Sequence record: NC_052662.1
DNA length: 64,000 bases
Strand: one strand, 5' to 3'
DNA from: Escherichia phage Mt1B1_P17
Positions 3,328 through 52,359 of this stretch are shown in pieces (position 1 is the first letter of the stretch; every line of letters starts with the position of its first letter). Made by a program: the position numbers and the translations under genes. The notes beneath the pieces were generated by a model. It was not told the origin of the DNA. It saw nothing but the letters and a program-made list of their open reading frames with translations, and did not search any database.

Positions 3328-3428
3328 TTGTTCCTCCAGTCAGGTATAAAATCGTTAAGGCAAGGCTGTATTATATACAACCTCACCTATCTAGTTATAA
3401 TACACTTTAAAGTGACTTTTGTCAACAA

Positions 3429-5504
3429 TTATCTTTTACGGACACTATACGGTTGGTGAAATCCGCTGTTCATTCTACTGTATCCTGTAGGAGCATTTGT
3501 TGTTGTAGGGATAGCTACTGCTTTGAAAGTATTCTCTTTTGACAGAGTATTAAAACAAGAGGCAGCAGCATCGGGAATGTCATCTTTAATAGTGGCTGTA
3601 GATCTTTCACCATTGAAAGATTCCAATTCTTTATAAAAGTGGGTTAAAGTTTCCACATTAGGGAAAGAATCTTCAACAATATAAACAAAACCGTTTTGAC
3701 ACGCACTACTAAAAGGCATAAAACGCTGAAGCTTTTTCTTGTTACCTGGCATAGCATCTGGTTTAACAACAAAACCTTCTAGAATAAGTTTCTTTGCAGA
3801 CTCTGTGTATTCTATTGTCCCAGCACCAGATGGGTCTTTAGGAAGCACTACTGTAACTTCTGGTCCATCAATCTTACATTGATTTAGAATCAGGTTATCC
3901 CTTTCCCCAGGTAGTCTTCGAAACCTTCCGAAAATTTTACTTTTCTCATCCACAGCATCATAATCATAGTCGCCAAAGATGTAGATATTACCATCTTGAT
4001 CTTTACCCATTTTGACAGATGTTGTATAGTCTGGATAACGGTAAGTTTCTGTAGGAACTGAAACAGCTTTATCCCATGCTCGCATTAGTTTAAGATTGTT
4101 AGGAACATCTTTATAAGATATTTTATGTAACCATTCACGTTGAAAGAAAGATTCTTTCTGGATACGTGCAAACCAACAACCGTCCAGAAGCTGTGCTCTT
4201 TTGATAGCTGTTTGTGATTTAAGCTGTGCTAAGTAATTAGGGTTAAGCCTAATGAGTTCTGGGTTATCAAATATTGTCCCACCAATAAATACGAAAGTTT
4301 GTGGTTCAATAACAACTGTCTCCCCTGTATTAGGGTTTTCCATGAAACAGTTTTCTGGATATTTTTCTTTCAGTTCTTCAGGTGTGTCAGCAAAAACAGG
4401 TTCATCGTTAACAATGATGAAATATTTTTGTTTACCACACATATCTTCTCTAGGATAACCACCCTCATCAAGATAAGGTAACACCCAATTCAAAACCCAA
4501 CTATCTGCGTCAGGGTTACATGTGCACAACATGAAACTTGTTTCTGACTCTGAACGCATACGTCCCAGAAGATAGAGCATTTCATATTGTGTGAAGTGGG
4601 TTAACTCGTCAAAACCTACCATTGAATACTGTGTACCCTGATGGTTTGTTTCTGCTGTTACGTTATCATTTTCCAAATGGTCAAATTTGAGGGTTCCACC
4701 ACCAGTGGCTTCAAAAATGATATCCATTGTACTTTCTTTTACGTGTGGTTGTAAAGGAAGATACAAACGTTTTGCTTCTGTAAACAGACCACCTGGTTTA
4801 CGGTGAGCAGTGGTGTTCTTACGGAAAAGTATTCCACCAAACAAAGGGTCTTTGTAGGCGTATTTTAAAGCTTTCAGCAATAGCAGACGAGACTTGCCGC
4901 TATTCCCAGTAACGAAGCAGTGATCGCCACGTCTAAAGACAATATAGCTGCTTGGAGTCTCAAAACAATATTTCTTATCATCTGTTGAAATAACCTCGTG
5001 TATTTTTAAGTAAGTGCTCTTTTTACCAGGTATGTTAAAAGGAACACGTTTACCGAATGGATTTTCTACATAACCTTGCAGGGGTTTTCCTATTTGCTGT
5101 AATGCAATAAGATCTCCTACAAGAATCTCGAAATGTTTCTTTGATTTCTTTTTCTTATAGAATACAAAACGGTGTTCCATACTAAGTTCTTGGAATAATC
5201 CTACACCATTTGTTATTCTGTATAGGTTATCTCCATTTAAATCGTATTCTACAAAATAAGGTGTTACCAATTCTAAACGCTTATTCTTAGGATTGTATTG
5301 GTAAATATCCTCTCCCGAATATTCACTAATCTGCCTCCAACCATCTTTTGTAAGATATTCCGTTTCAGCAGAAACACATCCAGCGGCACCACCATAAATC
5401 ATAACTTCTGGCATTAAATCCATTGCAAGAGTCTGTTTACCTGGTTGAGCCTTTACCTCAATATCTACTCCAGCTAAACTACCTGCTGCCTTTTTCTTTG
5501 CCAC
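3429..5504 (-). CDS. terminase large subunit (ATPase plus nuclease), interrupted by an in-frame mini-intein
   Basis: 691 aa; Walker B-like VGFDELTHF, LCTCNP motif; P-loop is split as GGAAG / intein / SGKS, which rejoins to GGAAGSGKS. Confidence 0.85.
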   Translation of the reverse strand: MAKKKAAGSLAGVDIEVKAQPGKQTLAMDLMPEVMIYGGAAGCVSAETEYLTKDGWRQISEYSGEDIYQYNPKNKRLELVTPYFVEYDLNGDNLYRITNGVGLFQELSMEHRFVFYKKKKSKKHFEILVGDLIALQQIGKPLQGYVENPFGKRVPFNIPGKKSTYLKIHEVISTDDKKYCFETPSSYIVFRRGDHCFVTGNSGKSRLLLLKALKYAYKDPLFGGILFRKNTTAHRKPGGLFTEAKRLYLPLQPHVKESTMDIIFEATGGGTLKFDHLENDNVTAETNHQGTQYSMVGFDELTHFTQYEMLYLLGRMRSESETSFMLCTCNPDADSWVLNWVLPYLDEGGYPREDMCGKQKYFIIVNDEPVFADTPEELKEKYPENCFMENPNTGETVVIEPQTFVFIGGTIFDNPELIRLNPNYLAQLKSQTAIKRAQLLDGCWFARIQKESFFQREWLHKISYKDVPNNLKLMRAWDKAVSVPTETYRYPDYTTSVKMGKDQDGNIYIFGDYDYDAVDEKSKIFGRFRRLPGERDNLILNQCKIDGPEVTVVLPKDPSGAGTIEYTESAKKLILEGFVVKPDAMPGNKKKLQRFMPFSSACQNGFVYIVEDSFPNVETLTHFYKELESFNGERSTATIKDDIPDAAASCFNTLSKENTFKAVAIPTTTNAPTGYSRMNSGFHQPYSVRKR
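4902..5378 (-). mobile_element. mini-intein (Hint domain, about 159 aa, no endonuclease domain) inside the terminase P-loop
   Basis: residues 43-201: starts CVSAETEYLTKDGW (block A-like), internal SMEH (block B-like), ends ...HCFVTGN followed by Ser +1; excision restores the Walker A motif. Confidence 0.7.
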
Positions 5505-7006: not shown

Positions 7007-7085
7007 TGGAGGCGGGAATTGGATTTGAACCAATGATCTCCAGCATATGAAACTGGCGAGGACGACCAGACTCCTCTATCCCGCT
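7007..7085 (-). tRNA. tRNA-Met (anticodon CAT; could also be Ile-lysidine or initiator)
   Basis: cloverleaf read by hand: anticodon stem CCAGT/GCTGG, loop TTCATAT, T-arm ATTGG-TTCAAAT-CCAAT, CCA encoded; position 1-72 mismatched. Confidence 0.7.
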
Positions 7086-7091
7086 ATTAGG

Positions 7092-7161
7092 TATCCCGTG
7101 CTGGATTCGAACCAGCATCACAATAAGTTGTGGAACTCTTATCCTGTAAGTCTAACGGGAA
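7092..7161 (-). tRNA. atypical tRNA-like element (possible pseudo-tRNA)
   Basis: perfect T-arm GCTGG-TTCGAAT-CCAGC and 6/7 bp acceptor stem, but only about 70 nt and no canonical anticodon arm could be folded. Confidence 0.3.
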
Positions 7162-7163
7162 AT

Positions 7164-7237
7164 TGGTTGTTTCGACAAGAATCGAACTTGTGTCTCACGA
7201 TTATCAGTCGTGGGTTCTACCATTGAACTACGAAACA
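7164..7237 (-). tRNA. tRNA-Ile (anticodon GAT)
   Basis: acceptor TGTTTCG/CGAAACA, D-arm GTTC..GAAC, anticodon stem CACGA/TCGTG with loop CTGATAA, T-loop TTCGATT, CCA encoded. Confidence 0.8.
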
Positions 7238-7243
7238 TTAAAT

Positions 7244-7320
7244 TGGTCGGAATTGCAGGATTCGAACCTGCGACCCTACGCTCCCAAAGCGTATGCTCTA
7301 CCAAACTGAGCTAAATTCCG
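7244..7320 (-). tRNA. tRNA-Pro (anticodon TGG)
   Basis: acceptor CGGAATT/AATTCCG, D-arm GCTC..GAGC, anticodon stem TACGC/GCGTA with loop TTTGGGA, T-arm GCAGG-TTCGAAT-CCTGC, CCA encoded. Confidence 0.8.
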
Positions 7321-7325
7321 TTATA

Positions 7326-7401
7326 TGGCTGGTCTGTCTGGATTTGAACCAAACCTACGACAGTCAAAGTGTCGTGTGCTACCTGACTACACTACAAACC
7401 A
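7326..7401 (-). tRNA. tRNA-Gln (anticodon TTG)
   Basis: acceptor TGGTTTG/CAGACCA (one G-U pair), anticodon stem CGACA/TGTCG with loop CTTTGAC, T-loop TTCAAAT, CCA encoded. Confidence 0.7.
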
Positions 7402-7499
7402 ATAAATCATTTAATGAAGGGCAACCAGAAGAGGTGTGAGAGAAGGAGAAAACCATGAGTAAAAGAGAAAGTTTTCTGGCAACCCTTTATTAAATAATT

Positions 7500-7573
7500 T
7501 GGAGCGTTCTACGAGGATCGAACTCGTGCCGCCGACTTGGAAGGACGGAATGCTACCGCTACACCAAGAACGC
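7500..7573 (-). tRNA. tRNA-Gly (anticodon TCC), tentative
   Basis: acceptor GCGTTCT/AGAACGC, T-arm ACGAG-TTCGATC-CTCGT, anticodon loop CTTCCAA with one T-T mismatch in the stem, CCA encoded. Confidence 0.55.
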
Positions 7574-7584
7574 CCTACCTCTTT

Positions 7585-7613
7585 ACTATACTACATTTTA
7601 CTATTGGTTGTCA
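7585..7613 (-). promoter_or_regulatory. sigma70-like promoter (TTGACA, 17 nt spacer, TATAGT) reading into the tRNA sub-cluster
   Basis: CTATTGACAA motif copy on the minus strand, about 35 nt upstream of the tRNA-Gly 5' end. Confidence 0.5.
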
Positions 7614-7887
7614 ATAGTTTTATTGAGTGGGACAGTGACGAGTATCCCATTGGGTGACTAGCCCTACGTTCGGTAAGCTAACTTAAAATAATACAAAACC
7701 AAAGTCAAATATTATTCTTCGTTGCTGTCGATGGGAGAGCCGCTTCTTCTTTTGCCCCATCCAACCCTACTCCGGTCAAGTTTCAGGTAACTCTTTTTGT
7801 GATCAACACAATACTAAGAACACTGTCTTTCGAGCAGACCTTGTGCACAGGATACGACGATCAATCACAGTGCTCTTAATGTTGTGT

Positions 7888-7962
7888 TGGTGCTCCCACT
7901 CTGAATCGAACAGAGATCCACGGATTACAAAACCGTTGTAATAGCCATTATACTATAGGAGC
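7888..7962 (-). tRNA. tRNA-Thr (anticodon TGT), tentative
   Basis: acceptor GCTCCTA/TGGGAGC, T-arm CTCTG-TTCGATT-CAGAG, anticodon loop TTTGTAA on a 4 bp stem with one U-U pair, CCA encoded. Confidence 0.5.
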
Positions 7963-7968
7963 AAAGCT

Positions 7969-8045
7969 GGGACTCGGCAGGATTCGATACCTGCAATTCC
8001 AGAAGCCTCTTGGCGACTGGGGGTTTACCTTAACTCTACAAGTCC
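7969..8045 (-). tRNA. atypical tRNA-like element with 8-nt T-loop
   Basis: 7 bp acceptor stem (GGACTTG/CGAGTCC) and T-arm GCAGG-TATCGAAT-CCTGC, but the central region folds as an extended hairpin, not a canonical anticodon arm; no CCA. Confidence 0.3.
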
Positions 8046-8052
8046 ATAATTC

Positions 8053-8138
8053 TGGCGATGAGTATAGGATTTGAACCTATATCGTTCTTTCGAACACGGA
8101 TTAACAGTCCGCCGCTTAAACCATTCAGCCAACTCATC
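8053..8138 (-). tRNA. type II (long variable arm) tRNA, anticodon loop reads GTT
   Basis: acceptor GATGAGT/ACTCATC, anticodon stem GCGGA/TCCGT with loop CTGTTAA, 15-nt variable arm hairpin GTTCGAAAGAAC, T-arm ATAGG-TTCAAAT-CCTAT, CCA encoded. Confidence 0.5.
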
Positions 8139-8144
8139 TTAATT

Positions 8145-8232
8145 TGGTGGTGAGTGATGGAGTCGAACCACCCGAATCGCAATGATAACAGATTTACAGT
8201 CTGCCCCGCTACCCCTACGGAATTAACTCACC
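8145..8232 (-). tRNA. tRNA-Tyr (anticodon GTA), type II
   Basis: acceptor GGTGAGT/ACTCACC, anticodon stem GCAGA/TCTGT with loop CTGTAAA, long variable arm, T-arm GGTGG-TTCGACT-CCATC, CCA encoded. Confidence 0.7.
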
Positions 8233-8362
8233 TAAATACTAATATTTAAATTCTTTTTAAAATAGCCAGTGTTCACACCACTAACTATGAGTTATCGGTA
8301 AGATGGTGGAGGCCATCTGCCGAAAGTTTACTCTATTAAAGTAAGCTATATTAAAAAGAACT

Positions 8363-8448
8363 TGGCGGTAGATGTAGGACTCGAACCTACACGCCGTTTC
8401 CGACTACAGTTTAGCAAACTGTCGTGGCTACCATTTCACCAATCTACC
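8363..8448 (-). tRNA. tRNA-Ser (anticodon GCT), type II
   Basis: acceptor GGTAGAT/ATCTACC, anticodon stem ACAGT/ACTGT with loop TTGCTAA, long variable arm, T-arm GTAGG-TTCGAGT-CCTAC, CCA encoded. Confidence 0.8.
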
Positions 8449-8452
8449 AATC

Positions 8453-8543
8453 TGGCGGAAGGAGGGAGAGTCGAACTCCCAAGGCTCTTTCAAGCTCGGC
8501 GGTTTTCAAGACCGTTTTCGTCGCCACGTCGATTTGCCCTTCC
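8453..8543 (-). tRNA. tRNA-Ser (anticodon TGA), type II
   Basis: acceptor GGAAGGG/TCCTTCC, anticodon loop CTTGAAA, long variable arm, T-arm GGGAG-TTCGACT-CTCCC, CCA encoded. Confidence 0.7.
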
Positions 8544-8551
8544 ATACTTAT

Positions 8552-8580
8552 AATCTAACATAAAATAATGTTAGTTGTCA
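8552..8580 (-). promoter_or_regulatory. sigma70-like promoter (TTGACA, 17 nt spacer, TAGATT) upstream of the tRNA-Ser pair
   Basis: third copy of the CTATTGACAA motif on the minus strand. Confidence 0.4.
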
Positions 8581-8777
8581 ATAGTTTTTTAAAACATTTT
8601 ACCATGAATGGTGACTCCACCAACCCCCGTTCTCAACGAACGGTGCTCTTCGAGCATTTATGTCTTCTAATATAACCGTGGCCTTTGTTTATAATGTCTG
8701 ACATACTTGCCTCATTCTCTGCCACCATGATCAGTAGTGGGTTCAAATCACTTGAGCTAATTCATGTTAAAATGTTC

Positions 8778-8852
8778 TGGTGTCTTTACAAGGAATCGAA
8801 CCTTGACTAAGAGTTTAGAAGACTCCTGTGCTATCCATTACACCATAAAGAC
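8778..8852 (-). tRNA. tRNA-Arg (anticodon TCT)
   Basis: acceptor GTCTTTA/TAAAGAC, D-arm GTGT..CAC, anticodon stem GGAGT/ACTCT with loop CTTCTAA, T-arm CAAGG-TTCGATT-CCTTG, CCA encoded. Confidence 0.8.
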
Positions 8853-8854
8853 GT

Positions 8855-8929
8855 TGGTGGCCCTGGCTGGTTTCGATCCAGCTACCTATCGGTTATGAGC
8901 CGACAGCTCTCCCATTGAGCTACAGGGCC
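8855..8929 (-). tRNA. tRNA-Met (anticodon CAT; second CAT tRNA)
   Basis: perfect acceptor GGCCCTG/CAGGGCC, D-arm GCTC..GAGC, anticodon stem GTCGG/CCGAT with loop CTCATAA, T-loop ATCGAAA, CCA encoded. Confidence 0.7.
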
Positions 8930-23226: not shown

Positions 23227-23835
23227 ATGCAGATAGTATGTGATTGGGATTTAGTTGTGGCTCCATTAGATGTTGCTTGGTTAGAATGGTTGAATAAGAT
23301 TAGTGGACTTGGTGTTAAGATAGACACATTCACAAAAAATGCAGACTATGATCTTACCAACTACTTTCCTGGTTTCAGGGAGGAGTTCAATATAGATCCT
23401 TACGGATTTCTGGATAATCCTCATCTCTATGATACAATGGGTTTTGTTCCAGGTATGCCAGATTTCTTAAAGTATGTTTCAAGGAAAGGTAGCAATCTTT
23501 TGATCGCAAGTGTGACAAAAGGTGGTCACTTAAGTTCTAAACATAAGCATGTTTTAAGAACATTAGATACGATTGATTTTAGCAAAGGATCTGGCAACGG
23601 CTTTTTTGCTACGAAAGAAAAATACTTATTGCCTTGTGATATAGCAATAGATGACAGGGCTGATAACCTACTATATTTTCCAGATGAAGTGGTTAAAATA
23701 TATTTTAATACGCCTTATAAAGATAACCATCTAGAAGAACTAAAGAAAAAACCAAATGTTGTGATCACAGGTTTAGAAGATCAGTGGCTAACATGTTTGG
23801 ATGTTTTTAACACTTTGAACAATTTTAAAAACTAA
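23227..23835 (+). CDS. HAD-like 5'(3')-nucleotidase (tentative)
   Basis: 202 aa; N-terminal CDWDLVVA resembles HAD motif I DxDx(T/V). Confidence 0.4.
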   Translation: MQIVCDWDLVVAPLDVAWLEWLNKISGLGVKIDTFTKNADYDLTNYFPGFREEFNIDPYGFLDNPHLYDTMGFVPGMPDFLKYVSRKGSNLLIASVTKGGHLSSKHKHVLRTLDTIDFSKGSGNGFFATKEKYLLPCDIAIDDRADNLLYFPDEVVKIYFNTPYKDNHLEELKKKPNVVITGLEDQWLTCLDVFNTLNNFKN

Positions 23836-23844
23836 GGAGAAAAA

Positions 23845-24843
23845 ATGACAAAACAGATTTCGGCTAGTATTATTGCGCATTCCATCACTGAAGACGGAAA
23901 AGAGATTGTAACTTTTGAACTAGAATATCCACGTATTATTCATTCAGAATTGATGACTCACCGCCTGTTCAGTCGTAATGCTGCTTCTAGCCGTGCTATA
24001 CCTGTTAAAACACTGATTGAAATGGTGCGAAATCAACCTGCTCGTCCTTATCGTTTTGGGGCTAACCAACCTGGTATGCAGGATAAAGGTGTTGATCATG
24101 ACGCTCTTATTGATGCAGGTTATACTGCTCAAGAGTGGTGGGATCTTGCCGCGCTTAGTGCAGCACGTTTTGCAGAAGAATTCTCTTTGGCAGGGTACCA
24201 CAAACAAGTTGCAAACCGTCTTCTGGAACCTTTCCAACGAATTAAAACAGTTCTGACAGCAACAGAATATGAAAATTTCTGGTGGCTGCGTGATGACAAA
24301 GAAGCCGATCCTACTATCGAAGCTTTGGCTAAAGAGATGCACAAAGAGTATGAAGGATCTACACCAGAAGTGCTGAAACCAGGGCAATGGCACACACCTT
24401 ATGTAGACCATTTCTATGATACTATTGGCACAGAAGGTGACGATCATTTTGTTTTTGGTGGATACTACGTTCAAGATGAATCTGGAGAAGTTGTTGTGCT
24501 TACTTTGGAAGAAGCCAAAGCTATTTCAGCTTCGTGTTGTGCACAGGTTAGCTATCGTCGTTTGAATGCAACTAAAGATAAAGCTTTAGATATCTATGGT
24601 CGTTTGCTGACTGGGCGCAAGGTTCATGCTTCTCCGTTTGAACATCAAGCCACTCCAATGCAAGAAACATACGAACAATATGGAGAGAACTGTTTTGAAG
24701 ATTTGTTTATCAATGCTCCTTGGGATTTTAACTCTTGGGAGCCAGGCATTACCCATGTAGATCGTAATGGTAAGTTTTGGTCTGGCAATTTCAAAGGCTG
24801 GATTCAACATCGTCAACTTTTAACAAATCATACTAAATGGTGA
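23845..24843 (+). CDS. thyX: flavin-dependent thymidylate synthase ThyX
   Basis: 332 aa; ThyX signature RHR-x7-S (HSELMTHRLFSRNAASSRA). Confidence 0.75.
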   Translation: MTKQISASIIAHSITEDGKEIVTFELEYPRIIHSELMTHRLFSRNAASSRAIPVKTLIEMVRNQPARPYRFGANQPGMQDKGVDHDALIDAGYTAQEWWDLAALSAARFAEEFSLAGYHKQVANRLLEPFQRIKTVLTATEYENFWWLRDDKEADPTIEALAKEMHKEYEGSTPEVLKPGQWHTPYVDHFYDTIGTEGDDHFVFGGYYVQDESGEVVVLTLEEAKAISASCCAQVSYRRLNATKDKALDIYGRLLTGRKVHASPFEHQATPMQETYEQYGENCFEDLFINAPWDFNSWEPGITHVDRNGKFWSGNFKGWIQHRQLLTNHTKW

Positions 24844-25619: not shown

Positions 25620-27860
25620 TTGATTCGTTTTGTAACTAAATCTAACGGTAAGACAGAGGAGTTTAATCCAGAAAAACTTCGCAAGTGGTCTGAATTTGCA
25701 GCAGGTAAACTAAACTGGTCTGAAATTGAATTAGAAGCTGTGAAGCGGTGTTATGACGGTGTGTCTACACGTGATCTGCATAAAGCAATGATTGCAGCGT
25801 GTATTGACAAGAAAACACAAGCTTACAGTGATATGGCAGGAAGACTTCTTCTGGGTATGATTTACAAACAGGCTCATGGGGGATACCACAGTATCCCTTC
25901 ACTGAATACCTTTTATCATGATATGGTAGAACGTGGACATTGGGCTAAAATGGATTATACTGATGAAGAGATCAAAGAAATCGGTAAGATTGTAAAGCAT
26001 AATAAAAATCTAACTTATGGTTATTCTGTTTTACGTCAGATGGTAGATAAATATCTTATTCGAGATGCAGTAAACGATGTGGTGCATGAGTCTCCACAGT
26101 TTCTTTTCATTGGTATCGCAATGAAGGTTATGGAGATCCAACCAAAAGAACGCCGTATAGAAGATATTAAAAAACTTTATACTTATGTTAGCGATCTTAA
26201 GATTAATCTGCCATCGCCGTATCTGACAACTCTACGAACTCCAATCAAAGGAAGTGCGTCTTGTTGTTTATTCCGTGCAGACGATACGGCAGAATCTTTA
26301 GCCATTGCTAATTACTTAGCTCATGAGTATACGTTGAATAACGCAGGTATTGGTGTTAATCTTCAAACTCGTGCCACAGGTCAAGGTGTTAAGAATAATC
26401 GTATTATTCATGGTGGTCTTCTTCCGTATCTGAAATGGATGGAAGATAGTGTTGGAGCTTCGAAGCAAGCAAGCCGTGGAGGTAGTGCTACAGTTACCTT
26501 TACCATACTTGAACCAGACTTCGACGATCTGATTCGACTGAAGAATCCAACAACACCTATAGATAAACGAGTAGACAAACTGGATTATTCTATTGTTGTT
26601 AACCGTTCGTTCTTGCGTCGAGCAGCAAAAAACGAAGATTGGATGTTAGTTAGTTGTGATGATGCTCCTGAACTTTATGAAGCTTTGTATAAAAGTGAAG
26701 AAGAGTTTGATGCAGTTTATGACAAAGTAAGCCGTCGTCGCATTAAGAAAAAATTTGTTAAGGCTCGTGATCTTCTGACAGAGATTATTGTTCAACGTGC
26801 AGAAACAGGACGTATTTACATGTTCTTTGCTGACAACGTTAACAACCATACACCTTTCCTGGATACGGTGTATCAATCAAACCTGTGTCAAGAGATCTTC
26901 TTACCAACTAAAGCTTTCCACAGTATGCCGGATCTCTTTACTGGTGAGAATACAGAAGATCAAGAATTGGCTTTATGCTTCTTATCTTCTATTGTTGCTG
27001 GTCGTGTATTACCTGAAGAATATGAAGATGTTGCATACTACACTGTATTGACAATTGACAACGTTATTGAAACAATGGATTATCCATTTAAACATAACGA
27101 AATAACTGCTAAAGCACGTAGATCTATTGGTGTAGGCATTACAAACTTAGCGCATTACTTGGCAAGTAATTTTGTAAATTATTCAGATGCTTATGCTAAA
27201 AAATTAATGCATGAACTTGCAGAACGTCATTACTTTTGGTTGGCAAAAGCCTCTCTGCGTCTGGCTAAGGAAAAAGGTAATGCGGAGTGGATCGATAAGA
27301 CCAAATGGCCTCAAGGTTGGCTACCAATTGACACTTATGCTAAAACAGTAGATAGTATCGGTAATTTTGATCTTAAAATGGACTGGGAAGGCTTACGTGC
27401 TGAAATCATTGAACAAGGTGGTATCCGTAACAGTGTCTTGGCTGCTATTGCACCTAATGAGTCCAGCAGTTTGGTAAGCAATACTACTAACTCTCTGTAC
27501 CCTGTTCGTGATACTATTATGTATAAACAAAGTCAGAAAGGTAGTGTATTATTTATTGTTCCAGACTACGAAAAACTGAAAATGTTCTACCAATCTGCCT
27601 GGGATACTCCGGCTAAAGATCTTGCAGAAATGTATGGTATTTTTACCAAGTTTACGGACCAAGGAATTTCTTGTGATTCTTGGTTAGATTATTCTAAATT
27701 GGTAGGGGGACGTTTATCAGTTAAAGAAGAGATGAAATTTATTTTGAACTTTGCTAGACTGGGTGGTAAGTCATTGTATTACCTTAATAGTAGAACAAAA
27801 TCAGCAGATTCTTTAGCACAAGAAGATTCTGATGGTGGTTGTGAAGCTTGCAAGATGTGA
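25620..27860 (+). CDS. nrdA: ribonucleotide reductase class I alpha subunit with ATP-cone
   Basis: 746 aa, TTG start after GGGAGGAG; N-terminal ATP-cone; catalytic NLCQEI motif; C-terminal Cys pair CEAC. Confidence 0.9.
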   Translation: MIRFVTKSNGKTEEFNPEKLRKWSEFAAGKLNWSEIELEAVKRCYDGVSTRDLHKAMIAACIDKKTQAYSDMAGRLLLGMIYKQAHGGYHSIPSLNTFYHDMVERGHWAKMDYTDEEIKEIGKIVKHNKNLTYGYSVLRQMVDKYLIRDAVNDVVHESPQFLFIGIAMKVMEIQPKERRIEDIKKLYTYVSDLKINLPSPYLTTLRTPIKGSASCCLFRADDTAESLAIANYLAHEYTLNNAGIGVNLQTRATGQGVKNNRIIHGGLLPYLKWMEDSVGASKQASRGGSATVTFTILEPDFDDLIRLKNPTTPIDKRVDKLDYSIVVNRSFLRRAAKNEDWMLVSCDDAPELYEALYKSEEEFDAVYDKVSRRRIKKKFVKARDLLTEIIVQRAETGRIYMFFADNVNNHTPFLDTVYQSNLCQEIFLPTKAFHSMPDLFTGENTEDQELALCFLSSIVAGRVLPEEYEDVAYYTVLTIDNVIETMDYPFKHNEITAKARRSIGVGITNLAHYLASNFVNYSDAYAKKLMHELAERHYFWLAKASLRLAKEKGNAEWIDKTKWPQGWLPIDTYAKTVDSIGNFDLKMDWEGLRAEIIEQGGIRNSVLAAIAPNESSSLVSNTTNSLYPVRDTIMYKQSQKGSVLFIVPDYEKLKMFYQSAWDTPAKDLAEMYGIFTKFTDQGISCDSWLDYSKLVGGRLSVKEEMKFILNFARLGGKSLYYLNSRTKSADSLAQEDSDGGCEACKM

Positions 27861-27904: not shown

Positions 27905-28990
27905 ATGGCAGCAATTAATTTACACAATGAAGTTTACAAAACAGGAAAATATCCAGTATTTTTGGGGGAGCAATTAGGGATCTTTGATTCTGTTAACGTA
28001 ACTTATCCAGAAATGCACAAACTCTACAAACTTCAAAAAGCACAAGATTGGGATGAAAACGAAGTTAATCTGGATCAGACACGTAAAGATTTCGTAGCTT
28101 GTTCTAAAAACAACTATGATGTTATGATTAAAAACTTATCGTTCCAATGGGAAAATGATTCTCTTGCAAAATCAATAATCACTTTGTTCTCTCCATTCTT
28201 GAGTAACAATGAAGCCTGTGCTATGATGATGAAGCAGAGTGAAATGGAAGTTCTCCATGCGTTAACGTATTCTGAAATAATCCGTCAATGTACTCCAGAT
28301 CCAATTGAAGTCATCAATCAGATTATGATTAATGATAAAATTTTCAATCGTATGGGTATCATTGCTGATATCATGGGTCAGTTGGAAGAAGCTGGTCATA
28401 AGTATGCTCTAGGATTGATTGAAGCTAACGATGAACTTCGCTTGTTGATTCTTAAAGGGATGGTAGCCCTGATTGGATTAGAAGGTATTCAGTTTATATC
28501 TTCCTTCTCTGCTACTTTTGCTATGGCAGAACAACAACTGTTTGTTGGGGCTTGTAAACTGATCCAGAAAATTATGCTAGATGAAATCTTGCATGTTAAG
28601 ATGGATTATGCTGTAATTGATGCATTGATGCATGACCCAATTTGGCGTAAAATTTACGAAGATAATATTGAAGAGTTGACTTTGATCCTCGACACTGTTG
28701 TTGAACAAGAGGAACAGTGGTGTGACTACCTGTTTAGTGAAGGTCGTTTTATTGTAGGTCTTAACGCCGAATTGTCTAAACAGTGGGTTTATTTCAATGC
28801 TGCTCCTATTTATCGTCGATTGAAAATGAAAGCCAAGTTTAAAGCACCTAAACATAGTCCTTTAGCTTGGATGGAAAAATGGTTGAATCCTGATTTGATT
28901 CAGTCAGCAGCCCAAGAGATTCAGTTAACTAATTACAAATTGAATTCAGCTAACAAAGATCTCTCTGATGATGAGGAGCTTGACTTCTAA
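27905..28990 (+). CDS. nrdB: ribonucleotide reductase class I beta subunit
   Basis: 361 aa; ferritin-like ExxH motifs (MEVLHALTYSE, LDEILHVK); directly follows nrdA. Confidence 0.8.
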   Translation: MAAINLHNEVYKTGKYPVFLGEQLGIFDSVNVTYPEMHKLYKLQKAQDWDENEVNLDQTRKDFVACSKNNYDVMIKNLSFQWENDSLAKSIITLFSPFLSNNEACAMMMKQSEMEVLHALTYSEIIRQCTPDPIEVINQIMINDKIFNRMGIIADIMGQLEEAGHKYALGLIEANDELRLLILKGMVALIGLEGIQFISSFSATFAMAEQQLFVGACKLIQKIMLDEILHVKMDYAVIDALMHDPIWRKIYEDNIEELTLILDTVVEQEEQWCDYLFSEGRFIVGLNAELSKQWVYFNAAPIYRRLKMKAKFKAPKHSPLAWMEKWLNPDLIQSAAQEIQLTNYKLNSANKDLSDDEELDF

Positions 28991-29199
28991 TGATTTTGAG
29001 ATGTGTTGGTATAATCGACACATTCAAAGACGTTTTTGACAAAGGGGCTTCTTATGAAGCCTCCGAAATGAAGAATGGTTTTTGTGATGTATTCGGTAAA
29101 CGCCCGAAGAAAAACGGCGATCCTTGGCTAGGAGTTATGTCTTGTGGTCATATTATTGTAAATGGTGTTGCCAAGTTTGAAATAATTAAGGAGGAATAA
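28990..29199 (+). CDS. hypothetical protein
   Basis: 69 aa. Confidence 0.4.
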   Translation: MILRCVGIIDTFKDVFDKGASYEASEMKNGFCDVFGKRPKKNGDPWLGVMSCGHIIVNGVAKFEIIKEE

Positions 29200-29352
29200 T
29201 GGCTGAAAAACTTATTTTTTGTCCTGTGTGCGGTGGGACTGGACAGATGGAAGTGGAAATTATGGTAACATTTCCTTGCCTGAATTGTCATGGTGAGGGA
29301 CGAGTAGTAATCTTTGAAAAAGAAGGGTTGGAGGTAGAAGATGGAGAGTGAA
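29200..29352 (+). CDS. small zinc-ribbon protein (about 50 aa)
   Basis: ATG after AAGGAGG; CPVCGG ... CLNCHG; below ORF-track cutoff. Confidence 0.4.
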
Positions 29353-29494
29353 AAAGAGTATGTTCGCATTCCACGAGAATTAACAGATCACATTGCAGAA
29401 GCAATAGCTTTCGAAGCTAGATGCTGTGGAGGCATTGCTTACGATATTTATGAAGCAATTATTAAAGCTGCTCAAGAAGAGGAGGAGATGAAAA

Positions 29495-29821
29495 ATGGGT
29501 ATTGATATCGAATGGCGTATGTTACAGGGTGCACCTTTTAATAAGTGGGAAGAGGCTGTAGGAGAAGATCCTAGAATTGAAGAAGAATTTGATGGAGATT
29601 TTAACTGGTTCTTACAAGAAGGTCTTGACTTAAGCCGCATCTCTCCTTTCTACGATGCAGATGAGTCTTATTGCATATATGGCCTTGATTTAGAAGGTGG
29701 AGAAGGAAGCATAGCTGTAGATCTTGAGCAATTGAATGAGAATGCAAAAGAAGCCTATGCAGAGCTACTTGAAAAATATAACATTAAAACGGAAACTATT
29801 ATTTCTCAACATGTCTGGTAA
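29495..29821 (+). CDS. hypothetical acidic protein
   Basis: 108 aa, RBS GAGGAGGAG. Confidence 0.5.
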   Translation: MGIDIEWRMLQGAPFNKWEEAVGEDPRIEEEFDGDFNWFLQEGLDLSRISPFYDADESYCIYGLDLEGGEGSIAVDLEQLNENAKEAYAELLEKYNIKTETIISQHVW

Positions 29822-29830
29822 GGAGAGAAA

Positions 29831-30397
29831 ATGAAAGTAGAAAAAACAAAAATTGAAGGTGCGGTAATTATCAAACCAGACGTTTATAAAGATGATCGTG
29901 GTTTCTTTTTAGAAACATACAATGAACAAAAATACGAAGATATCATTGGTAAACAAACTTTCGTTCAAGATAATATGTCTAAATCAAACTTCGGTGTTTT
30001 GCGAGGAATGCACTTTCAAACAAATAATCCGCAAGGTAAGCTTGTTCGTTGTGTAAGTGGGGAAGTATTGGATTTCGCTGTAGACTTACGTAAAGACAGT
30101 CCAACTTACGGTGCTTGGGACGGTGTTGTTCTTCGTGCACGACACCATACGCAGTTTTGGCTTCCTCCTGGTTTGGCACATGGCTTTATAGTTTTGAGTA
30201 TGGATGCGATCTTTGAATACAAATGCACAACTCCATACGACCCTTCTAGTGAACAAAGTTTACGTTGGGATGATCCTGACATAGGGATCGATTGGGGCTT
30301 CGATATGATTTTTGACGAAGGTTTTAAACCTATCTTATCAACAAAAGATGCAATGGCTAAATCTTTTCAACAGTTACGTAGCGAGGGTGTATGCTAA
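29831..30397 (+). CDS. dTDP-4-dehydrorhamnose 3,5-epimerase (RmlC-like cupin)
   Basis: 188 aa; RmlC motifs GVLRGMHFQ and LPPGLAHGF. Confidence 0.75.
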   Translation: MKVEKTKIEGAVIIKPDVYKDDRGFFLETYNEQKYEDIIGKQTFVQDNMSKSNFGVLRGMHFQTNNPQGKLVRCVSGEVLDFAVDLRKDSPTYGAWDGVVLRARHHTQFWLPPGLAHGFIVLSMDAIFEYKCTTPYDPSSEQSLRWDDPDIGIDWGFDMIFDEGFKPILSTKDAMAKSFQQLRSEGVC

Positions 30398-31233
30398 CAT
30401 ATCTGGTATTGGGCGGTAATGGACAACTGGGACAAGCTTTACGTAAAGTGGTTCCTTCAAATGTATCTTTAATTTATCCTAAAGAACGTGTAGATATTAC
30501 AAATTTTGAAGCTGTGCGAAACGCTATTGTTGAAGATTATGTAGATGGTGTTATTAATTGCGCCGCTTATACGGCTGTAGATAAAGCAGAACATGATTTT
30601 GCTACTGCTTTGGCTGTTAATGCGTATGGACCTGCAAATATTGCGGCAGTGTGCAGCAAACTTAAAATTGATTTTGTGCATATTTCTACAGATTATATTT
30701 TTAATTATTCTCATCCTATTTTTGAAGATACTACACCTAACCCAATAAACAATTATGGGTATACGAAAGAACTTGGTGAAAAAATGGTGCGAGGAGTTAA
30801 CCCAAATGCATATATTATTCGAACAACCTCGGTATATAGCGAATTTGGAAATAACTTTCTAAAAACCATGTTGTCTCGCTATAATGATGGACAACGTGAT
30901 TTTATTATTGTTGCTGATCAGTTCTCTTGTCCAACATATGCTCCAGATTTAGCAGAAGCTATTTTTGAAGTATTAAAAACAGGTTGGTCAAGGTCTGTTA
31001 AGACTTACCATTTTGCAGGAAGCCATCTTATTTCTTGGGCGGAGTTTGCGGAAAAGATCTTGACACAGATGCCAGAACCTGTTAAGATATCGGCGGTATC
31101 AGCTTCAACCTATAATGCTCCAGCAGCACGTCCGGTGAAGTCACAACTAGTAACCAGTCACTATCTTACAAAATCAGATTTAAATAAAGGTATTGAACAG
31201 TCTTTAGCAGTATTACTTAATAAGGAGAGGTAA
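30391..31233 (+). CDS. dTDP-4-dehydrorhamnose reductase (RmlD-like)
   Basis: 280 aa; Rossmann LVLGGNGQLG and catalytic YGYTKELGE. Confidence 0.7.
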   Translation: MLTYLVLGGNGQLGQALRKVVPSNVSLIYPKERVDITNFEAVRNAIVEDYVDGVINCAAYTAVDKAEHDFATALAVNAYGPANIAAVCSKLKIDFVHISTDYIFNYSHPIFEDTTPNPINNYGYTKELGEKMVRGVNPNAYIIRTTSVYSEFGNNFLKTMLSRYNDGQRDFIIVADQFSCPTYAPDLAEAIFEVLKTGWSRSVKTYHFAGSHLISWAEFAEKILTQMPEPVKISAVSASTYNAPAARPVKSQLVTSHYLTKSDLNKGIEQSLAVLLNKER

Positions 31234-31493
31234 TGGAATTTGTAATTTTTGGTAAACCTAACTGTCAATTTTGCGAAATGTCAAAACAACTATTAACCAT
31301 GCGCAATAAACAGTTTGAATATTTAAGTCTTGATCAAGACTATGATTTAGAATCAATGACTAAAACAGTTGTTGATCTTACCGGAGTTCCTCCACGCACA
31401 TTTCCACAAATTCTGTCTGAAGTGAACGGGGAGGTAACATACGTAGGCGGTTTTACCGAACTGCGTGATCTCATGGCTCAAATTGCGGAGTAA
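31233..31493 (+). CDS. glutaredoxin/thioredoxin-like protein (NrdC-like)
   Basis: 86 aa; CxxC active site in GKPNCQFCEMSK. Confidence 0.65.
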   Translation: MEFVIFGKPNCQFCEMSKQLLTMRNKQFEYLSLDQDYDLESMTKTVVDLTGVPPRTFPQILSEVNGEVTYVGGFTELRDLMAQIAE

Positions 31494-49042: not shown

Positions 49043-49415
49043 ACTGTGCTACCTTTTCTTTTACCCAATCTACACGATCTTTATCATAATGTTGAGTGCC
49101 AAGGAAAAGACCATTGTGGAAACTTTCCTCACCGAAAGGATAAATTGGATCTAAACCATCTTCTTCAAACAACATTTTTAATCGATTTGATGTAGATTTC
49201 TTAGTTTCTGAGTTGTAGTTTGTGGTTATAAGCCAATCTTCCAAACAACGACACAAACCTTGACGAGAATCCCAAGGAAAAACACAATCTCCGATAGGAG
49301 CTTGTTCCGCCCATTTCAACCAGCCTTTAAAAAAGTTATACAGTATATAGTCTTCAGTGTAATACATTATCTCCTCCTTTACGTATACAATAACACCCCG
49401 AAGAACGGGGTGCAA
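49029..49415 (-). CDS. paralog family A member (divergent)
   Basis: 128 aa; shares F-x-x-W-L ... GLC ... PF ... R-V-x-WVKEK with six other ORFs. Confidence 0.5.
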   Translation of the reverse strand: MHPVLRGVIVYVKEEIMYYTEDYILYNFFKGWLKWAEQAPIGDCVFPWDSRQGLCRCLEDWLITTNYNSETKKSTSNRLKMLFEEDGLDPIYPFGEESFHNGLFLGTQHYDKDRVDWVKEKVAQYEWG

Positions 49416-49418
49416 CTG

Positions 49419-50030
49419 TTATTTAATCTGTTTAAAAATTTCGTTTGGAACGGTACCGTTTAAAATACCTTCTACGATCTCTTGTGCAGACGTGTAAGAG
49501 AGTCCAAAAGAAGCTACGCCTAAAATTGCCTCCTTCAAAGGATCTGGCAGGGGTTCAAAATTACCTGCAACAAAGCCACCTGCACAAGCAGCGCCTTCAT
49601 CATCCCAGAAAACAACTGCTACATCGTTACCATGCGAAGTTGTGCGATGTGCAATAACTTCAACTTCGGTGCCTTCTTTAGGAACAGAATAAGAACTGTC
49701 CCAAGAATATCTTTCCAAATCAGGAACAAAGATAACCTTTTCACCTACTGGCGGCAGTTCACAACGATAATACCAAGAATTTTTTTCGTTCATTGTTTTA
49801 TTTTCCTCCACGTCTTCAAAAGTAACGATCCAATCGTAGCCGTAAGAAAACGGATATTTTAGATCTAAAGAATAAGTTTGACCTAGATCGTCCTCAACAA
49901 GAACCATCCTGTCAAAGTTTGCGATGTTAGGATTATGTTTAATGATAGGGTATGTTTCCCCTACAGTAAATTGTCCCAAATGGTAAAGTTCATCTCTCCA
50001 AGTAATTTGGATATGAGTGCATTGAATCAT
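49419..50030 (-). CDS. hypothetical protein
   Basis: 203 aa. Confidence 0.5.
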   Translation of the reverse strand: MIQCTHIQITWRDELYHLGQFTVGETYPIIKHNPNIANFDRMVLVEDDLGQTYSLDLKYPFSYGYDWIVTFEDVEENKTMNEKNSWYYRCELPPVGEKVIFVPDLERYSWDSSYSVPKEGTEVEVIAHRTTSHGNDVAVVFWDDEGAACAGGFVAGNFEPLPDPLKEAILGVASFGLSYTSAQEIVEGILNGTVPNEIFKQIK

Positions 50031-50034
50031 AAAA

Positions 50035-50307
50035 TCACCCCCAAGAAATATTTATATATCTTACAATGTTTGCACTGTCTAAAGCCATGTTTGCACCACA
50101 CCCACGCTCGCGCCAGTAACTAACAATACCTTCGCAGATACTTTCTTGTATCTTCTTATCACTTGGCATTTCTAGTATAAGACTTGGATTGTGGATGTTT
50201 ATGTTATAATATCCTTCCTCTGCGGCTTGAGCTACCAATTTACTTACTTTTTCAAAGTACGGGGAATTAGTGGCATCTGCCATTGTTTTTAAGGTTTGTC
50301 TATCCAT
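50035..50307 (-). CDS. hypothetical protein
   Basis: 90 aa. Confidence 0.45.
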   Translation of the reverse strand: MDRQTLKTMADATNSPYFEKVSKLVAQAAEEGYYNINIHNPSLILEMPSDKKIQESICEGIVSYWRERGCGANMALDSANIVRYINISWG

Positions 50308-50705
50308 TATTCTGCCTCATCATAGAAGAAATCCAACTCTTGTTCCAGTTGTTTAACTCGATCCTTAACCCACTGTACACGTTTTTCATTAAACATGCAA
50401 CGTTTTTCCTTACACTCTTGCTCAAAAGATTTTGCTGTGTTAAATGGGAAAGTTGTATCTAAGCCAGCGTTTTCAAAACTGGCTAATTGCATACCATAAA
50501 CAGAATATGCTAGAGAATGCTCTGCCCGAAATTCATCACTTATATACATACGCAGACCTCGGCATAAGCCAACATCAGCGTAACCACTTTCTCTTGGAAA
50601 GAGACGGAGGTGTTCTAACCAATTATTATAGAAATCTAAAAGAATCCTCTTACACTTCAAATCGATTGTCATAAAAAGTTTCTCCTTCATCAAACAAGTT
50701 GGCAA
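50307..50705 (-). CDS. paralog family A member
   Basis: 132 aa; FYNNWL ... GLC ... FPFN ... RVQWVKDRV. Confidence 0.5.
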   Translation of the reverse strand: MPTCLMKEKLFMTIDLKCKRILLDFYNNWLEHLRLFPRESGYADVGLCRGLRMYISDEFRAEHSLAYSVYGMQLASFENAGLDTTFPFNTAKSFEQECKEKRCMFNEKRVQWVKDRVKQLEQELDFFYDEAE

Positions 50706-51072
50706 GATTGTTCACGGCAATCTGGGTGGAAAGAAGACAACTGTTTGCAGACACATAAGCACGAGCTATTTTGTAAACATAAACTTTCGTATTACAATTG
50801 TCTAGGATCGGAAGACTTTCGTCGATAGCATCTATAACACTAAACATCACATCTAAAACTTTAATGGTGAGTGTTGTATTTGTATCTTCGTAACCTTTTT
50901 CAATCAGACCTGAATAGAAGGTATAGTCCTCAACAGTTCGTCGTTTAAATTGGCGCATAAAATCGGAACCATCTGTAGCAGAATTGAACAAATTTTCAAA
51001 AAATACGTCCCATCCTGCAAAAAGGGCTGATAGCATGATTAAGTGATCTATAGATTCATTTTCTTGTTTCAT
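50650..51072 (-). CDS. hypothetical protein
   Basis: 140 aa; overlaps the upstream gene by 56 nt, start may be internal. Confidence 0.45.
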   Translation of the reverse strand: MKQENESIDHLIMLSALFAGWDVFFENLFNSATDGSDFMRQFKRRTVEDYTFYSGLIEKGYEDTNTTLTIKVLDVMFSVIDAIDESLPILDNCNTKVYVYKIARAYVSANSCLLSTQIAVNNLANLFDEGETFYDNRFEV

Positions 51073-51080
51073 ATCCTCTC

Positions 51081-51758
51081 CTATTTAATGTTCAGTCTGG
51101 CACACAAACGAGAAACAGTCTTAGCATCCCATTTACCACCACGTGCTGTTGCTATTTTCTTACTATTGAATTTTTCAGCAATAGTTTTGTAAGGTGTATT
51201 TAAATCTCTAAGGATCTCCAAACGTTCACGAAATGTCTCTGCAAAAGCGTCTGCTTTAACAGAGTTGTATTCCATTTTTCCTTTTCTACGTGCAGCGGCA
51301 GTTTTAGGATTAGCACTGCCTAATAAAACACCTTTGCTTTTTGCTACAGCAAGACCCTTTTTAATACGATCAGCAATACCTCTAACTTCTTGTTCAGCCA
51401 GAACAGATAGAAGCTGTATAACCATTTTATCTGCGTCTGGCATGATGGCTATCTTAACATCGATCATCTCCAGAAGAGTTGCTACGGAGGCGTTGTTACG
51501 ACCCAAGCGGTCAACTTTAGCTACCAATAAAGTTGCTCCGGTAGCTTTACACATTTCAACCGCTTTGACCAGTTCTTTACGTTGCTTCCAATCGCCCTTA
51601 CCCGAATAGTATTCAGAAAATTGACCAATAACTTCAGCATCAGGCACAGAGTCTAAGAAGTAACGGATATCGTTCTCTTGGCTCTCCATACCATATTGTG
51701 CCTCACCTTTTTTCTGTTTAGAAAGACGACTGTAAACAACAAACTTTTTCATAACCAC
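51081..51758 (-). CDS. serine recombinase (resolvase/invertase family)
   Basis: 225 aa; catalytic-domain motifs VVYSRLS (Ser nucleophile) and LLVAKVDRLGRN; C-terminal HTH-like region. Confidence 0.65.
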   Translation of the reverse strand: MVMKKFVVYSRLSKQKKGEAQYGMESQENDIRYFLDSVPDAEVIGQFSEYYSGKGDWKQRKELVKAVEMCKATGATLLVAKVDRLGRNNASVATLLEMIDVKIAIMPDADKMVIQLLSVLAEQEVRGIADRIKKGLAVAKSKGVLLGSANPKTAAARRKGKMEYNSVKADAFAETFRERLEILRDLNTPYKTIAEKFNSKKIATARGGKWDAKTVSRLCARLNIK

Positions 51759-51822
51759 TCCTAAACTATTACTGTATTCTCACTTTACAAAACGAATAAA
51801 CACTTGTCAAGGTATTTATTAT

Positions 51823-52035
51823 TTACAGCCATTCTACTCTTAAGCAGTATTCCTCGACATGTTGTTTACGCTTGTTTTTGTCTATGTAAGTGTATTCAAC
51901 AAATGTCCCAAGATAGTCCTTGTCTACATTGTGTGGGCTATTGATTGGACATTTAGTACGACAAACCCGTTGCCACTGACGAAGAATTACGGCTTTGTTT
52001 TTAGGATCAAAGGGATGAGGGTAATGTGCCTTCAT
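51823..52035 (-). CDS. hypothetical protein
   Basis: 70 aa. Confidence 0.45.
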   Translation of the reverse strand: MKAHYPHPFDPKNKAVILRQWQRVCRTKCPINSPHNVDKDYLGTFVEYTYIDKNKRKQHVEEYCLRVEWL

Positions 52036-52359
52036 TCACGACTCCTGTTTTAGTCGAAAAATATTTTGAATAACGAGAGATGTATAGTTATCACCTAGTC
52101 CCATAAGTTCTACTTCCAAGTTTCGAATATCTTCCACCGTAGGAGGATATGTTGGTAAAAATGCTTGAGCATTGCCAGATCCAACCTCATTACTGTAAGC
52201 AGTTGTAAAATTGTAAGATACAAAACATGAAACACCTTTTTGTCGGTACCCGATTAATCGACGAATACACCAGATAAGAGCCAAGCCTATGAGAACACCT
52301 CCTAAACCAGCTAACAAGAAGGATAAGTTCATAATAGCTTCGTTAACAACTGCTTGCAT
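52036..52359 (-). CDS. hypothetical membrane protein
   Basis: 107 aa; N-terminal transmembrane helix LSFLLAGLGGVLIGLALIWCI. Confidence 0.45.
   Translation of the reverse strand: MQAVVNEAIMNLSFLLAGLGGVLIGLALIWCIRRLIGYRQKGVSCFVSYNFTTAYSNEVGSGNAQAFLPTYPPTVEDIRNLEVELMGLGDNYTSLVIQNIFRLKQES

Follow-up and report, generated by a model that had tools for sequence, protein, structure and literature searches.

Phage-Encoded RmlC and RmlD Retained after Precise Loss of rmlB-rmlA in Phapecoctavirus, and Their Putative Link to a Glycosyltransferase Cassette

Introduction

Viruses that combine sugar-nucleotide enzymes with glycosyltransferases in order to decorate their virions include Mimivirus and the chloroviruses, with their rhamnose glycans, and mycobacteriophages in which capsid or tail is glycosylated. 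A second type of system, represented by the glucosylation of hydroxymethylcytosine (hmC) in T-even phages and by TET-associated systems, couples phage glycosyltransferases to nucleotide-metabolism genes in the replication region. Here we describe a pair of adjacent genes, rmlC and rmlD, that are predicted to encode the last two enzymes of deoxythymidine diphosphate (dTDP)-L-rhamnose synthesis and that lie within a 64,000-nucleotide stretch of Escherichia phage Mt1B1_P17 (NC_052662.1), referred to below as the window. The phage group is like the first type in carrying genes for sugar-nucleotide enzymes together with those for several putative glycosyltransferases, but differs from it in that its glycosyltransferase genes lie in the replication and not the structural module, which is where it resembles the second.

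The window derives from a phAPEC8-like myovirus of the genus Phapecoctavirus, subfamily Stephanstirmvirinae, bearing out the phage origin that had been proposed in an initial annotation made from the sequence by itself (the sequence-only reading). Its rmlC-rmlD locus is 100% identical to that of Phapecoctavirus 536P1, 99.9% identical to that of Escherichia phage ESCO37 and 98-99% identical to those of dozens of phAPEC8-like myoviruses, and the window as a whole is a mosaic of such phages, with 89-100% identity to 536P1 depending on the segment. Several sequence records that match the E. coli Phapecoctavirus or Justusliebigvirus loci tested carry doubtful host labels (MG065650.1, MG065639.1, MG065689.1, OP562383.1 and OR584014.1); Campylobacter phage B15, Acinetobacter phage ABPW7 and Pseudomonas phage PsgM04F show 93-99% nucleotide identity to those loci, and Campylobacter phages A150 and A110a a similarity at the level of Justusliebigvirus.

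The gene content itself is already known. The records of relatives annotate a dTDP-4-dehydrorhamnose 3,5-epimerase and reductase, the rml genes of the group have been discussed by Olsen et al., a 'putative dTDP glycosylation machinery' is mentioned by Maffei et al. 2021 (PMC8594841) and a 2023 paper describes ESCO37 as being without the thymidylyltransferase and dehydratase genes (PMC10269720). What we add is the exact deletion, at a microhomology, that removed rmlB and rmlA, the selection that acts on rmlC-rmlD in their absence, the reliance on a host intermediate that this would imply, and a co-distributed cassette of four glycosyltransferase genes.

Results and Discussion

The two genes at the center of this work are

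29831-30397, + strand: rmlC, dTDP-4-dehydrorhamnose 3,5-epimerase, 188 aa (PF00908, TIGR01221)
30391-31233, + strand: rmlD, dTDP-4-dehydrorhamnose reductase, 280 aa (PF04321, TIGR01214)

and their reading frames share 7 nt. Residues 5-180 of the epimerase align with positions 1-167 of the 168-position PF00908 (dTDP_sugar_isom) profile with an expectation value (E) of 7.8e-67, and the protein scores 225.3 bits against TIGR01221 (rmlC), for which the curated cut-off is 155.75. The match to S. enterica RmlC (PDB 1DZR) has E 7.6e-56, with H61/K70/Y130/D173 of the phage protein aligning with H63/K73/Y133/D170 of 1DZR, residues that we take to be the catalytic dyad (H63/D170), the acid (Y133) and a further active-site lysine; the four phage residues are invariant in five phage homologues that are 42-99% identical. 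For the reductase, E is 6.4e-73 with PF04321 (RmlD_sub_bind), and the score with TIGR01214 (rmlD; cut-off 224.05) is 236.5 bits. Among solved structures its closest relatives are 3SC6 of B. anthracis (E 3.7e-44) and 1VL0 of C. acetobutylicum, with which the NAD(P)H motif G8xxG11xxG14, T100 (in ISTDYIF) and Y122xxxK126 align; the corresponding Thr/Tyr/Lys triad of short-chain dehydrogenases is, we assume, T104, Y128 and K132 in S. enterica RmlD. The motifs from which the sequence-only reading had named both enzymes are all present in the translations, namely RGMHFQ (residue 58) and PPGLAHGF (residue 112) in RmlC, and GGNGQLG (residue 8) and YGYTKELGE (residue 122) in RmlD, and its assignments are borne out by the profile scores and the catalytic residues. 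The two proteins are thus like bacterial RmlC and RmlD (1DZR, 1KBZ, 3SC6) in having full-length domains, equivalog-level scores and the catalytic residues, but differ in being encoded by a virulent phage with no adjacent rmlA or rmlB, and on sequence grounds we assign them as RmlC and RmlD, predicted to carry out the final two steps of dTDP-L-rhamnose synthesis.

One might ask whether a different 6-deoxyhexose is made, with RmlD yielding dTDP-6-deoxy-L-talose or RmlC acting as a mono-epimerase. RmlD clears the TIGR01214 cut-off by just ∼12 bits, its nearest cellular relatives in a set of 185,579 species genomes reach identities of only 36-44%, and mono-epimerases of the RmlC fold (for example NovW and a 3-epimerase of the D-allose pathway) are found among the PDB matches. 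The latter, however, match in the PDB sequence search at E 1e-25 to 1e-29, as compared with 1e-56 for bona fide RmlCs; moreover, RmlC lies ∼70 bits over its equivalog cut-off and keeps all four catalytic residues, and the ancestral operon described below is the canonical rmlBACD set. Production of another sugar is therefore very unlikely. As to the origin of the reductase, it is nearer to the Firmicutes/Bacteroidota type (154 bits to 3SC6) than to that of the enterobacterial host (104 bits to S. enterica RmlD, 1KBZ). Recent acquisition from E. coli was weighed and can be rejected, the closest cellular RmlDs, at the identities given above, being mostly from Bacteroidota.

A search of the window with phAPEC8 proteins (tblastn) gave no RmlA or RmlB, the sole hit being a cross-hit of RmlB on rmlD, as is to be expected between short-chain dehydrogenases, which agrees with what the sequence-only reading had reported for the window; neither gene was found in the complete genomes of 536P1 and nepoznato, so that none of these three sequences encodes RmlA, RmlB, RmlC and RmlD together. 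By comparison, the order rmlB-rmlA-rmlC-rmlD is found between nrdB and the glutaredoxin gene (grx) in phAPEC8, ESCO25, SKA64, tuntematon, TSP7_1, phiWec179 and phi92. Since these seven relatives, which have the genes at the same place, include the more distant phiWec179 and phi92, a member of the sister genus Justusliebigvirus, the four-gene order is best read as the ancestral state of the subfamily. The window has the same locus, from nrdB to glutaredoxin, as phAPEC8 and other Stephanstirmvirinae (phi92, tuntematon, ESCO5), with the same small upstream open reading frames (ORFs) and, within the genus, nucleotide identities of 97-100% for rmlC and 98-100% for rmlD. It differs from the phAPEC8-type operon by the absence of rmlB and rmlA, and alignment of the junction with both ends of the missing segment establishes that exactly 1876 bp are gone. 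The breakpoint is

29822-29826, + strand: GGAGA Shine-Dalgarno microhomology at the deletion junction (alignment to both ends of phAPEC8 rmlB-rmlA)

a sequence that rmlB and rmlC have in common in their ribosome-binding sites; the Shine-Dalgarno sequence that results from the deletion is a hybrid, but it is intact and normally spaced 5' of rmlC.

The junction, CTGGTAAGGAGAGAAAATG, is identical in all ten two-gene genomes examined, the two-gene state occurring also in 536P1, ESCO37, nepoznato, ZCKP1, ECO340P1, SF1-1, WPEC2, ABPW7 and iGC_PHA_EC001. In a tree of rmlC-rmlD the two-gene genomes cluster together, with one four-gene phage nested nearby. These results are compatible with a single deletion event that was spread by recombination; recurrent deletion at the same GGAGA microhomology may also have occurred. 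The rmlC-rmlD locus is found in 71 phage records at identities of at least 80%, as compared with 48 records for rmlB-rmlA at identities of at least 86%, from which we estimate that about one-third of the records are of the two-gene type, the records having been counted with RefSeq duplicates included.

Both rmlC and rmlD are intact in each of the 16 genomes compared, and the ratios of nonsynonymous to synonymous polymorphism (pN/pS) are

rmlC: 0.015 in two-gene phages, 0.025 in four-gene phages
rmlD: 0.145 in two-gene phages, 0.174 in four-gene phages

establishing that rmlC-rmlD is under purifying selection after the loss of rmlB-rmlA. Half of the pathway is gone from the two-gene genomes, and it might be imagined that the genes left behind are functionless remnants in the process of decay. 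The ten two-gene genomes are nonetheless free of frameshifts and stops in them, most of the polymorphic codons show synonymous change (18 vs 2 amino-acid-changing in rmlC, 21 vs 12 in rmlD), pN/pS is not above that of the four-gene phages, the hybrid site for ribosome binding is kept along with its spacing, and RmlC is found (tblastn) in all 63 records at the Phapecoctavirus level. The purifying selection leads us to reject decay, which is largely refuted and scarcely credible. Where rmlB and rmlA are present they too are constrained (pN/pS of 0.086 and 0.152), and this, together with the occurrence of RmlC in all 63 records, indicates that rmlC-rmlD is retained while rmlB-rmlA is dispensable.

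Such a pattern can be understood from the metabolism of the host. Enterobacterales make dTDP-4-keto-6-deoxy-D-glucose by two routes, with RmlA/RmlB where they have a rhamnose-containing O-antigen cluster and, in essentially all of them, with RffH/RffG, which belong to the synthesis of the enterobacterial common antigen (ECA); RmlC and RmlD are present only in those hosts with a rhamnose O-antigen cluster. Since hosts always make the substrate of RmlC and only some of them have RmlC and RmlD, a phage could dispense with the first pair of genes while keeping the second. We suggest that a lineage that precisely lost rmlB-rmlA from the ancestral rmlB-rmlA-rmlC-rmlD would draw dTDP-4-keto-6-deoxy-D-glucose from the host and that the phage RmlC and RmlD would turn this intermediate into dTDP-L-rhamnose.

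The most likely users of this product are four glycosyltransferases encoded elsewhere in the genome. The sequence-only reading had called for a search for glycosyltransferases in the rest of the genome and had named the lack of any such partner among the findings that would count against it; the closest complete genomes, those of two relatives, do carry four adjacent genes: in nepoznato (NC_052658.1, 104046-107190; RefSeq annotation) they lie consecutively just upstream of the primase/helicase and DNA polymerase genes, and in 536P1 (OZ035728.1) all four are present at ∼49149-52260. The proteins are an unclassified one of 187 aa, a 227-aa GT-A type enzyme (GT2) and two GT-B paralogues of ∼315 aa that are 41% identical to each other; no clear transmembrane segment is seen in any of the four. 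GT2 has an invariant DDD motif and, given an AlphaFold2 model with a predicted local distance difference test (pLDDT) score of 89, is confidently predicted to have a GT-A fold. Matches by tblastn with identities of at least 60% were found in 129 phage records for the cassette protein GT3 and in 130 for RmlC, and those with identities of at least 95% in 63 records for each; among coliphages both are confined to Stephanstirmvirinae. A metagenome contig of 135.6 kb from a distant relative (Logan SRR24146891) has, at 2667-5319 of the extracted piece L104, a gene like those for nucleoside diphosphate (NDP)-hexose 4,6-dehydratases that directly adjoins homologues of GT2 and GT3, and this group too is located upstream of primase/helicase and PolA genes. 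With 171 bits, the dehydratase-like protein falls short of the cut-off of TIGR01181. On account of the matching distribution among records and of the dehydratase-like gene beside the GT2 and GT3 homologues, the case that the rml enzymes feed the glycosyltransferase cassette, although circumstantial, is consistent, and dTDP-L-rhamnose would most likely be the donor for the four enzymes. The homologues found for the latter were all unnamed sequences on contigs of phage size, so that the families appear essentially phage-specific; GT3 also has distant tblastn matches, at 25% identity, to actinophage glycosyltransferases. A scan of IMG/VR with RmlC gave two loci and little was gained from it.

If rhamnose is transferred, to what? 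Of the three uses put forward in the sequence-only reading, glycosylation of a modified base has fared worst. According to this explanation rhamnose would be passed from dTDP-rhamnose to a modified base of phage DNA by at least one of the phage enzymes, much as in the glucosyl-hmC of T4 or with TET-associated glycosyltransferases, perhaps sparsely or only in certain sequence contexts. Modification of DNA has been proposed on the basis of such gene location (PMC7552041) and the idea has been repeated (PMC10844046); indeed, both the rml and the glycosyltransferase genes are in blocks devoted to DNA metabolism and replication, which is a point against a target other than DNA. In addition, several DNA methyltransferases are encoded, one of them Dcm-like (nepoznato annotation), and GT2 is weakly similar to the TET-associated glycosyltransferase (TAGT) family PF20691 (E 0.0011, 19.3 bits, below the cut-off of 27.5) and to PHROG-842, the T-even beta-glucosyl-hmC alpha-glucosyltransferase (E 7e-6). 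These matches, however, span ∼37-40 residues at the generic GT-A DXD region, a stretch that is also matched by the model for family-2 glycosyltransferases. A Pfam scan of 20 ORFs of the window gave neither a TET/JBP protein nor a ThyA-type hydroxymethylase, nor any other base-hydroxymethylating enzyme, and none is annotated in the RefSeq record of nepoznato, although with many small ORFs unannotated absence is unproven; the one thymidylate synthase found in the scans is ThyX-like. The T-even and TET-associated systems, with which the present one shares the weak, sub-threshold resemblance of GT2 to TAGT and PHROG-842, differ from it in that no hydroxymethylase or TET enzyme has been found here, and the donor would be a dTDP-sugar and not a uridine diphosphate (UDP)-sugar.

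A further difference is that Stephanstirmvirinae are sensitive, and not resistant, to restriction. Vequintavirinae and their relatives, among them the phAPEC8 and phi92-like groups, have been described as 'exceptionally susceptible' to restriction-modification, in phi92-like phages 'despite a putative dTDP glycosylation machinery' (PMC8594841), and Stephanstirmvirinae are also hit by defenses that spare hypermodified phages, as Druantia III and ARMADA II act on Bas61 and Bas62 (Stephanstirmvirinae) but not on hypermodified Straboviridae (PMC13463889). A literature search on rhamnosylated phage DNA gave nothing relevant. DNA modification is currently the weakest option and we regard it as unlikely. 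Judged by position, 41528-44250 (+ strand) of the window would correspond to the gene for the Dcm-like methyltransferase of nepoznato; the region consists of three ORFs (41528-43450, + strand) with no Pfam matches and a Sir2-family gene (43435-44250, + strand), and a Pfam scan found no TET/JBP domain in it.

With bulk DNA disfavored, virion proteins or a glycoconjugate of the infected-cell envelope would be left as the acceptor, and glycosylation of virion proteins or remodeling of envelope glycans are the leading candidates, as judged from gene content. Our account as a whole, in which active RmlC and RmlD, left after a precise loss of rmlB-rmlA, would use a substrate supplied by the host and provide rhamnose to the glycosyltransferases, is on balance probable. 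Several points do weigh against it. The cassette is outside the window, and its presence in the window's own phage is deduced from relatives; its co-distribution with the rml genes could simply reflect that both belong to the core genes of one subfamily. The Pfam matches of the four glycosyltransferases are weak or sub-threshold, searches of NCBIfam and of PDB sequences with them gave no match, and the GT2 model matches only generic GT-A folds, with template modeling (TM) scores of 0.3-0.45. Part of the low pN/pS in two-gene phages could come from variation recombined in from four-gene phages, where it had already been filtered by selection, and the slim margin of RmlD over its cut-off, noted above, belongs here as well.

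Genomic Context

The surroundings of the rml genes in the window are as follows:

23227-23835: NT5C-like deoxynucleotidase, just upstream of the ThyX-like ORF
23845-24843, + strand: ThyX-like ORF of 332 aa, annotated as FAD-dependent thymidylate synthase in relatives (weak ThyX Pfam match, 33 bits, partial profile)
25620-27860, + strand: nrdA, class Ia ribonucleotide reductase (ORF; so annotated in phAPEC8 and nepoznato)
27905-28990, + strand: nrdB, class Ia ribonucleotide reductase (ORF; so annotated in phAPEC8 and nepoznato)
28990-29821, + strand: four small conserved ORFs (69, 50, 54 and 108 aa), tightly packed between nrdB and rmlC
31233-31493, + strand: glutaredoxin (grx), 86 aa (PF00462, E 1.8e-9), its start overlapping the rmlD stop

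The position beside genes for ribonucleotide reductase and glutaredoxin, as had been read from the sequence, is thus confirmed, with nrdA and nrdB upstream in the same gene block and the glutaredoxin gene abutting rmlD downstream. The 332-aa ORF is predicted to be a divergent ThyX-like protein. The set of small ORFs between nrdB and rmlC is kept in all relatives compared; Pfam gave no match for those of 69, 54 and 108 aa, the 50-aa ORF having been outside the scan, and the 108-aa ORF matches phrog_15453, a family of unknown function. The 50-aa ORF (29199-29351, + strand) has two CxxC pairs, is conserved in all relatives and carries the label 'DnaJ-like' in SKA64 and in phi92 (gp070). In a scan for promoters and terminators around the rml genes, sites were no commoner than in shuffled sequence, and the operon structure is accordingly deduced from gene packing.

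The location of rmlC-rmlD in a block for deoxynucleoside triphosphate supply, with nrdAB, the ThyX-like gene and grx, is a point in favor of another explanation, in which there is no phage acceptor at all and the enzymes serve to sabotage host metabolism. RmlC and RmlD could drain dTDP-4-keto-6-deoxyglucose away from dTDP-Fuc4NAc and hence from ECA, or dTDP-rhamnose could inhibit the host RmlA by feedback and so spare deoxythymidine triphosphate (dTTP) for replication. From what is known of the pathway, the two-gene form would use up a host intermediate that is shared with ECA synthesis. ECA is, furthermore, a receptor for the phage group, and phi92-like phages count as bona fide ECA-targeting (PMC8594841). 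With RmlA and RmlB added, however, the four-gene state, which is ancestral and still common, makes more of the intermediate and consumes dTTP, so that a role in draining ECA precursors or in sparing dTTP fits poorly with an ancestral RmlA and RmlB. Moreover, Vequintavirinae sensu stricto, which target ECA as well, are without the genes, RmlC matches among coliphages being confined to Stephanstirmvirinae, and the tight co-distribution with four glycosyltransferases suggests that the product gets used. Sabotage is, in our estimation, decidedly improbable, and we continue to favor dTDP-rhamnose as a donor for the phage glycosyltransferases.

Farther from the rml genes, the window has a cluster of 10 tRNA genes at 7007-8929 (- strand), for Met (two), Ile, Pro, Gln, Gly, Thr, Asn, Ser and Arg, and a terminase large subunit encoded by a single 691-aa ORF at 3429-5504 (- strand). 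The annotation of nepoznato (NC_052658.1, 3553-6597) has this subunit as two coding sequences with an HNH endonuclease gene between them, which suggests a mobile intervening element.

Concluding Remarks

The purpose of the rhamnose genes in these phages has so far only been guessed at in the literature, and the label of 'rhamnose DNA modification' that the literature attaches to them should be treated with caution, as it is so far without support. Two- and four-gene phages occur in nature as near-isogenic variants, which allows their comparison on host mutants in sugar pathways. The genes are a conserved and selected trait of a subfamily with an unusually broad host range and wide use in therapy cocktails. 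We propose, tentatively and as a possibility that stops short of being probable, that Stephanstirmvirinae may build a rhamnose-containing glycan on a target other than DNA, either virion proteins or an envelope glycoconjugate, for example in masking receptors in the lipopolysaccharide core or ECA, and that the third of Phapecoctavirus in which rmlB-rmlA is deleted would be natural auxotrophs that depend on the ECA or O-antigen precursor of their host.

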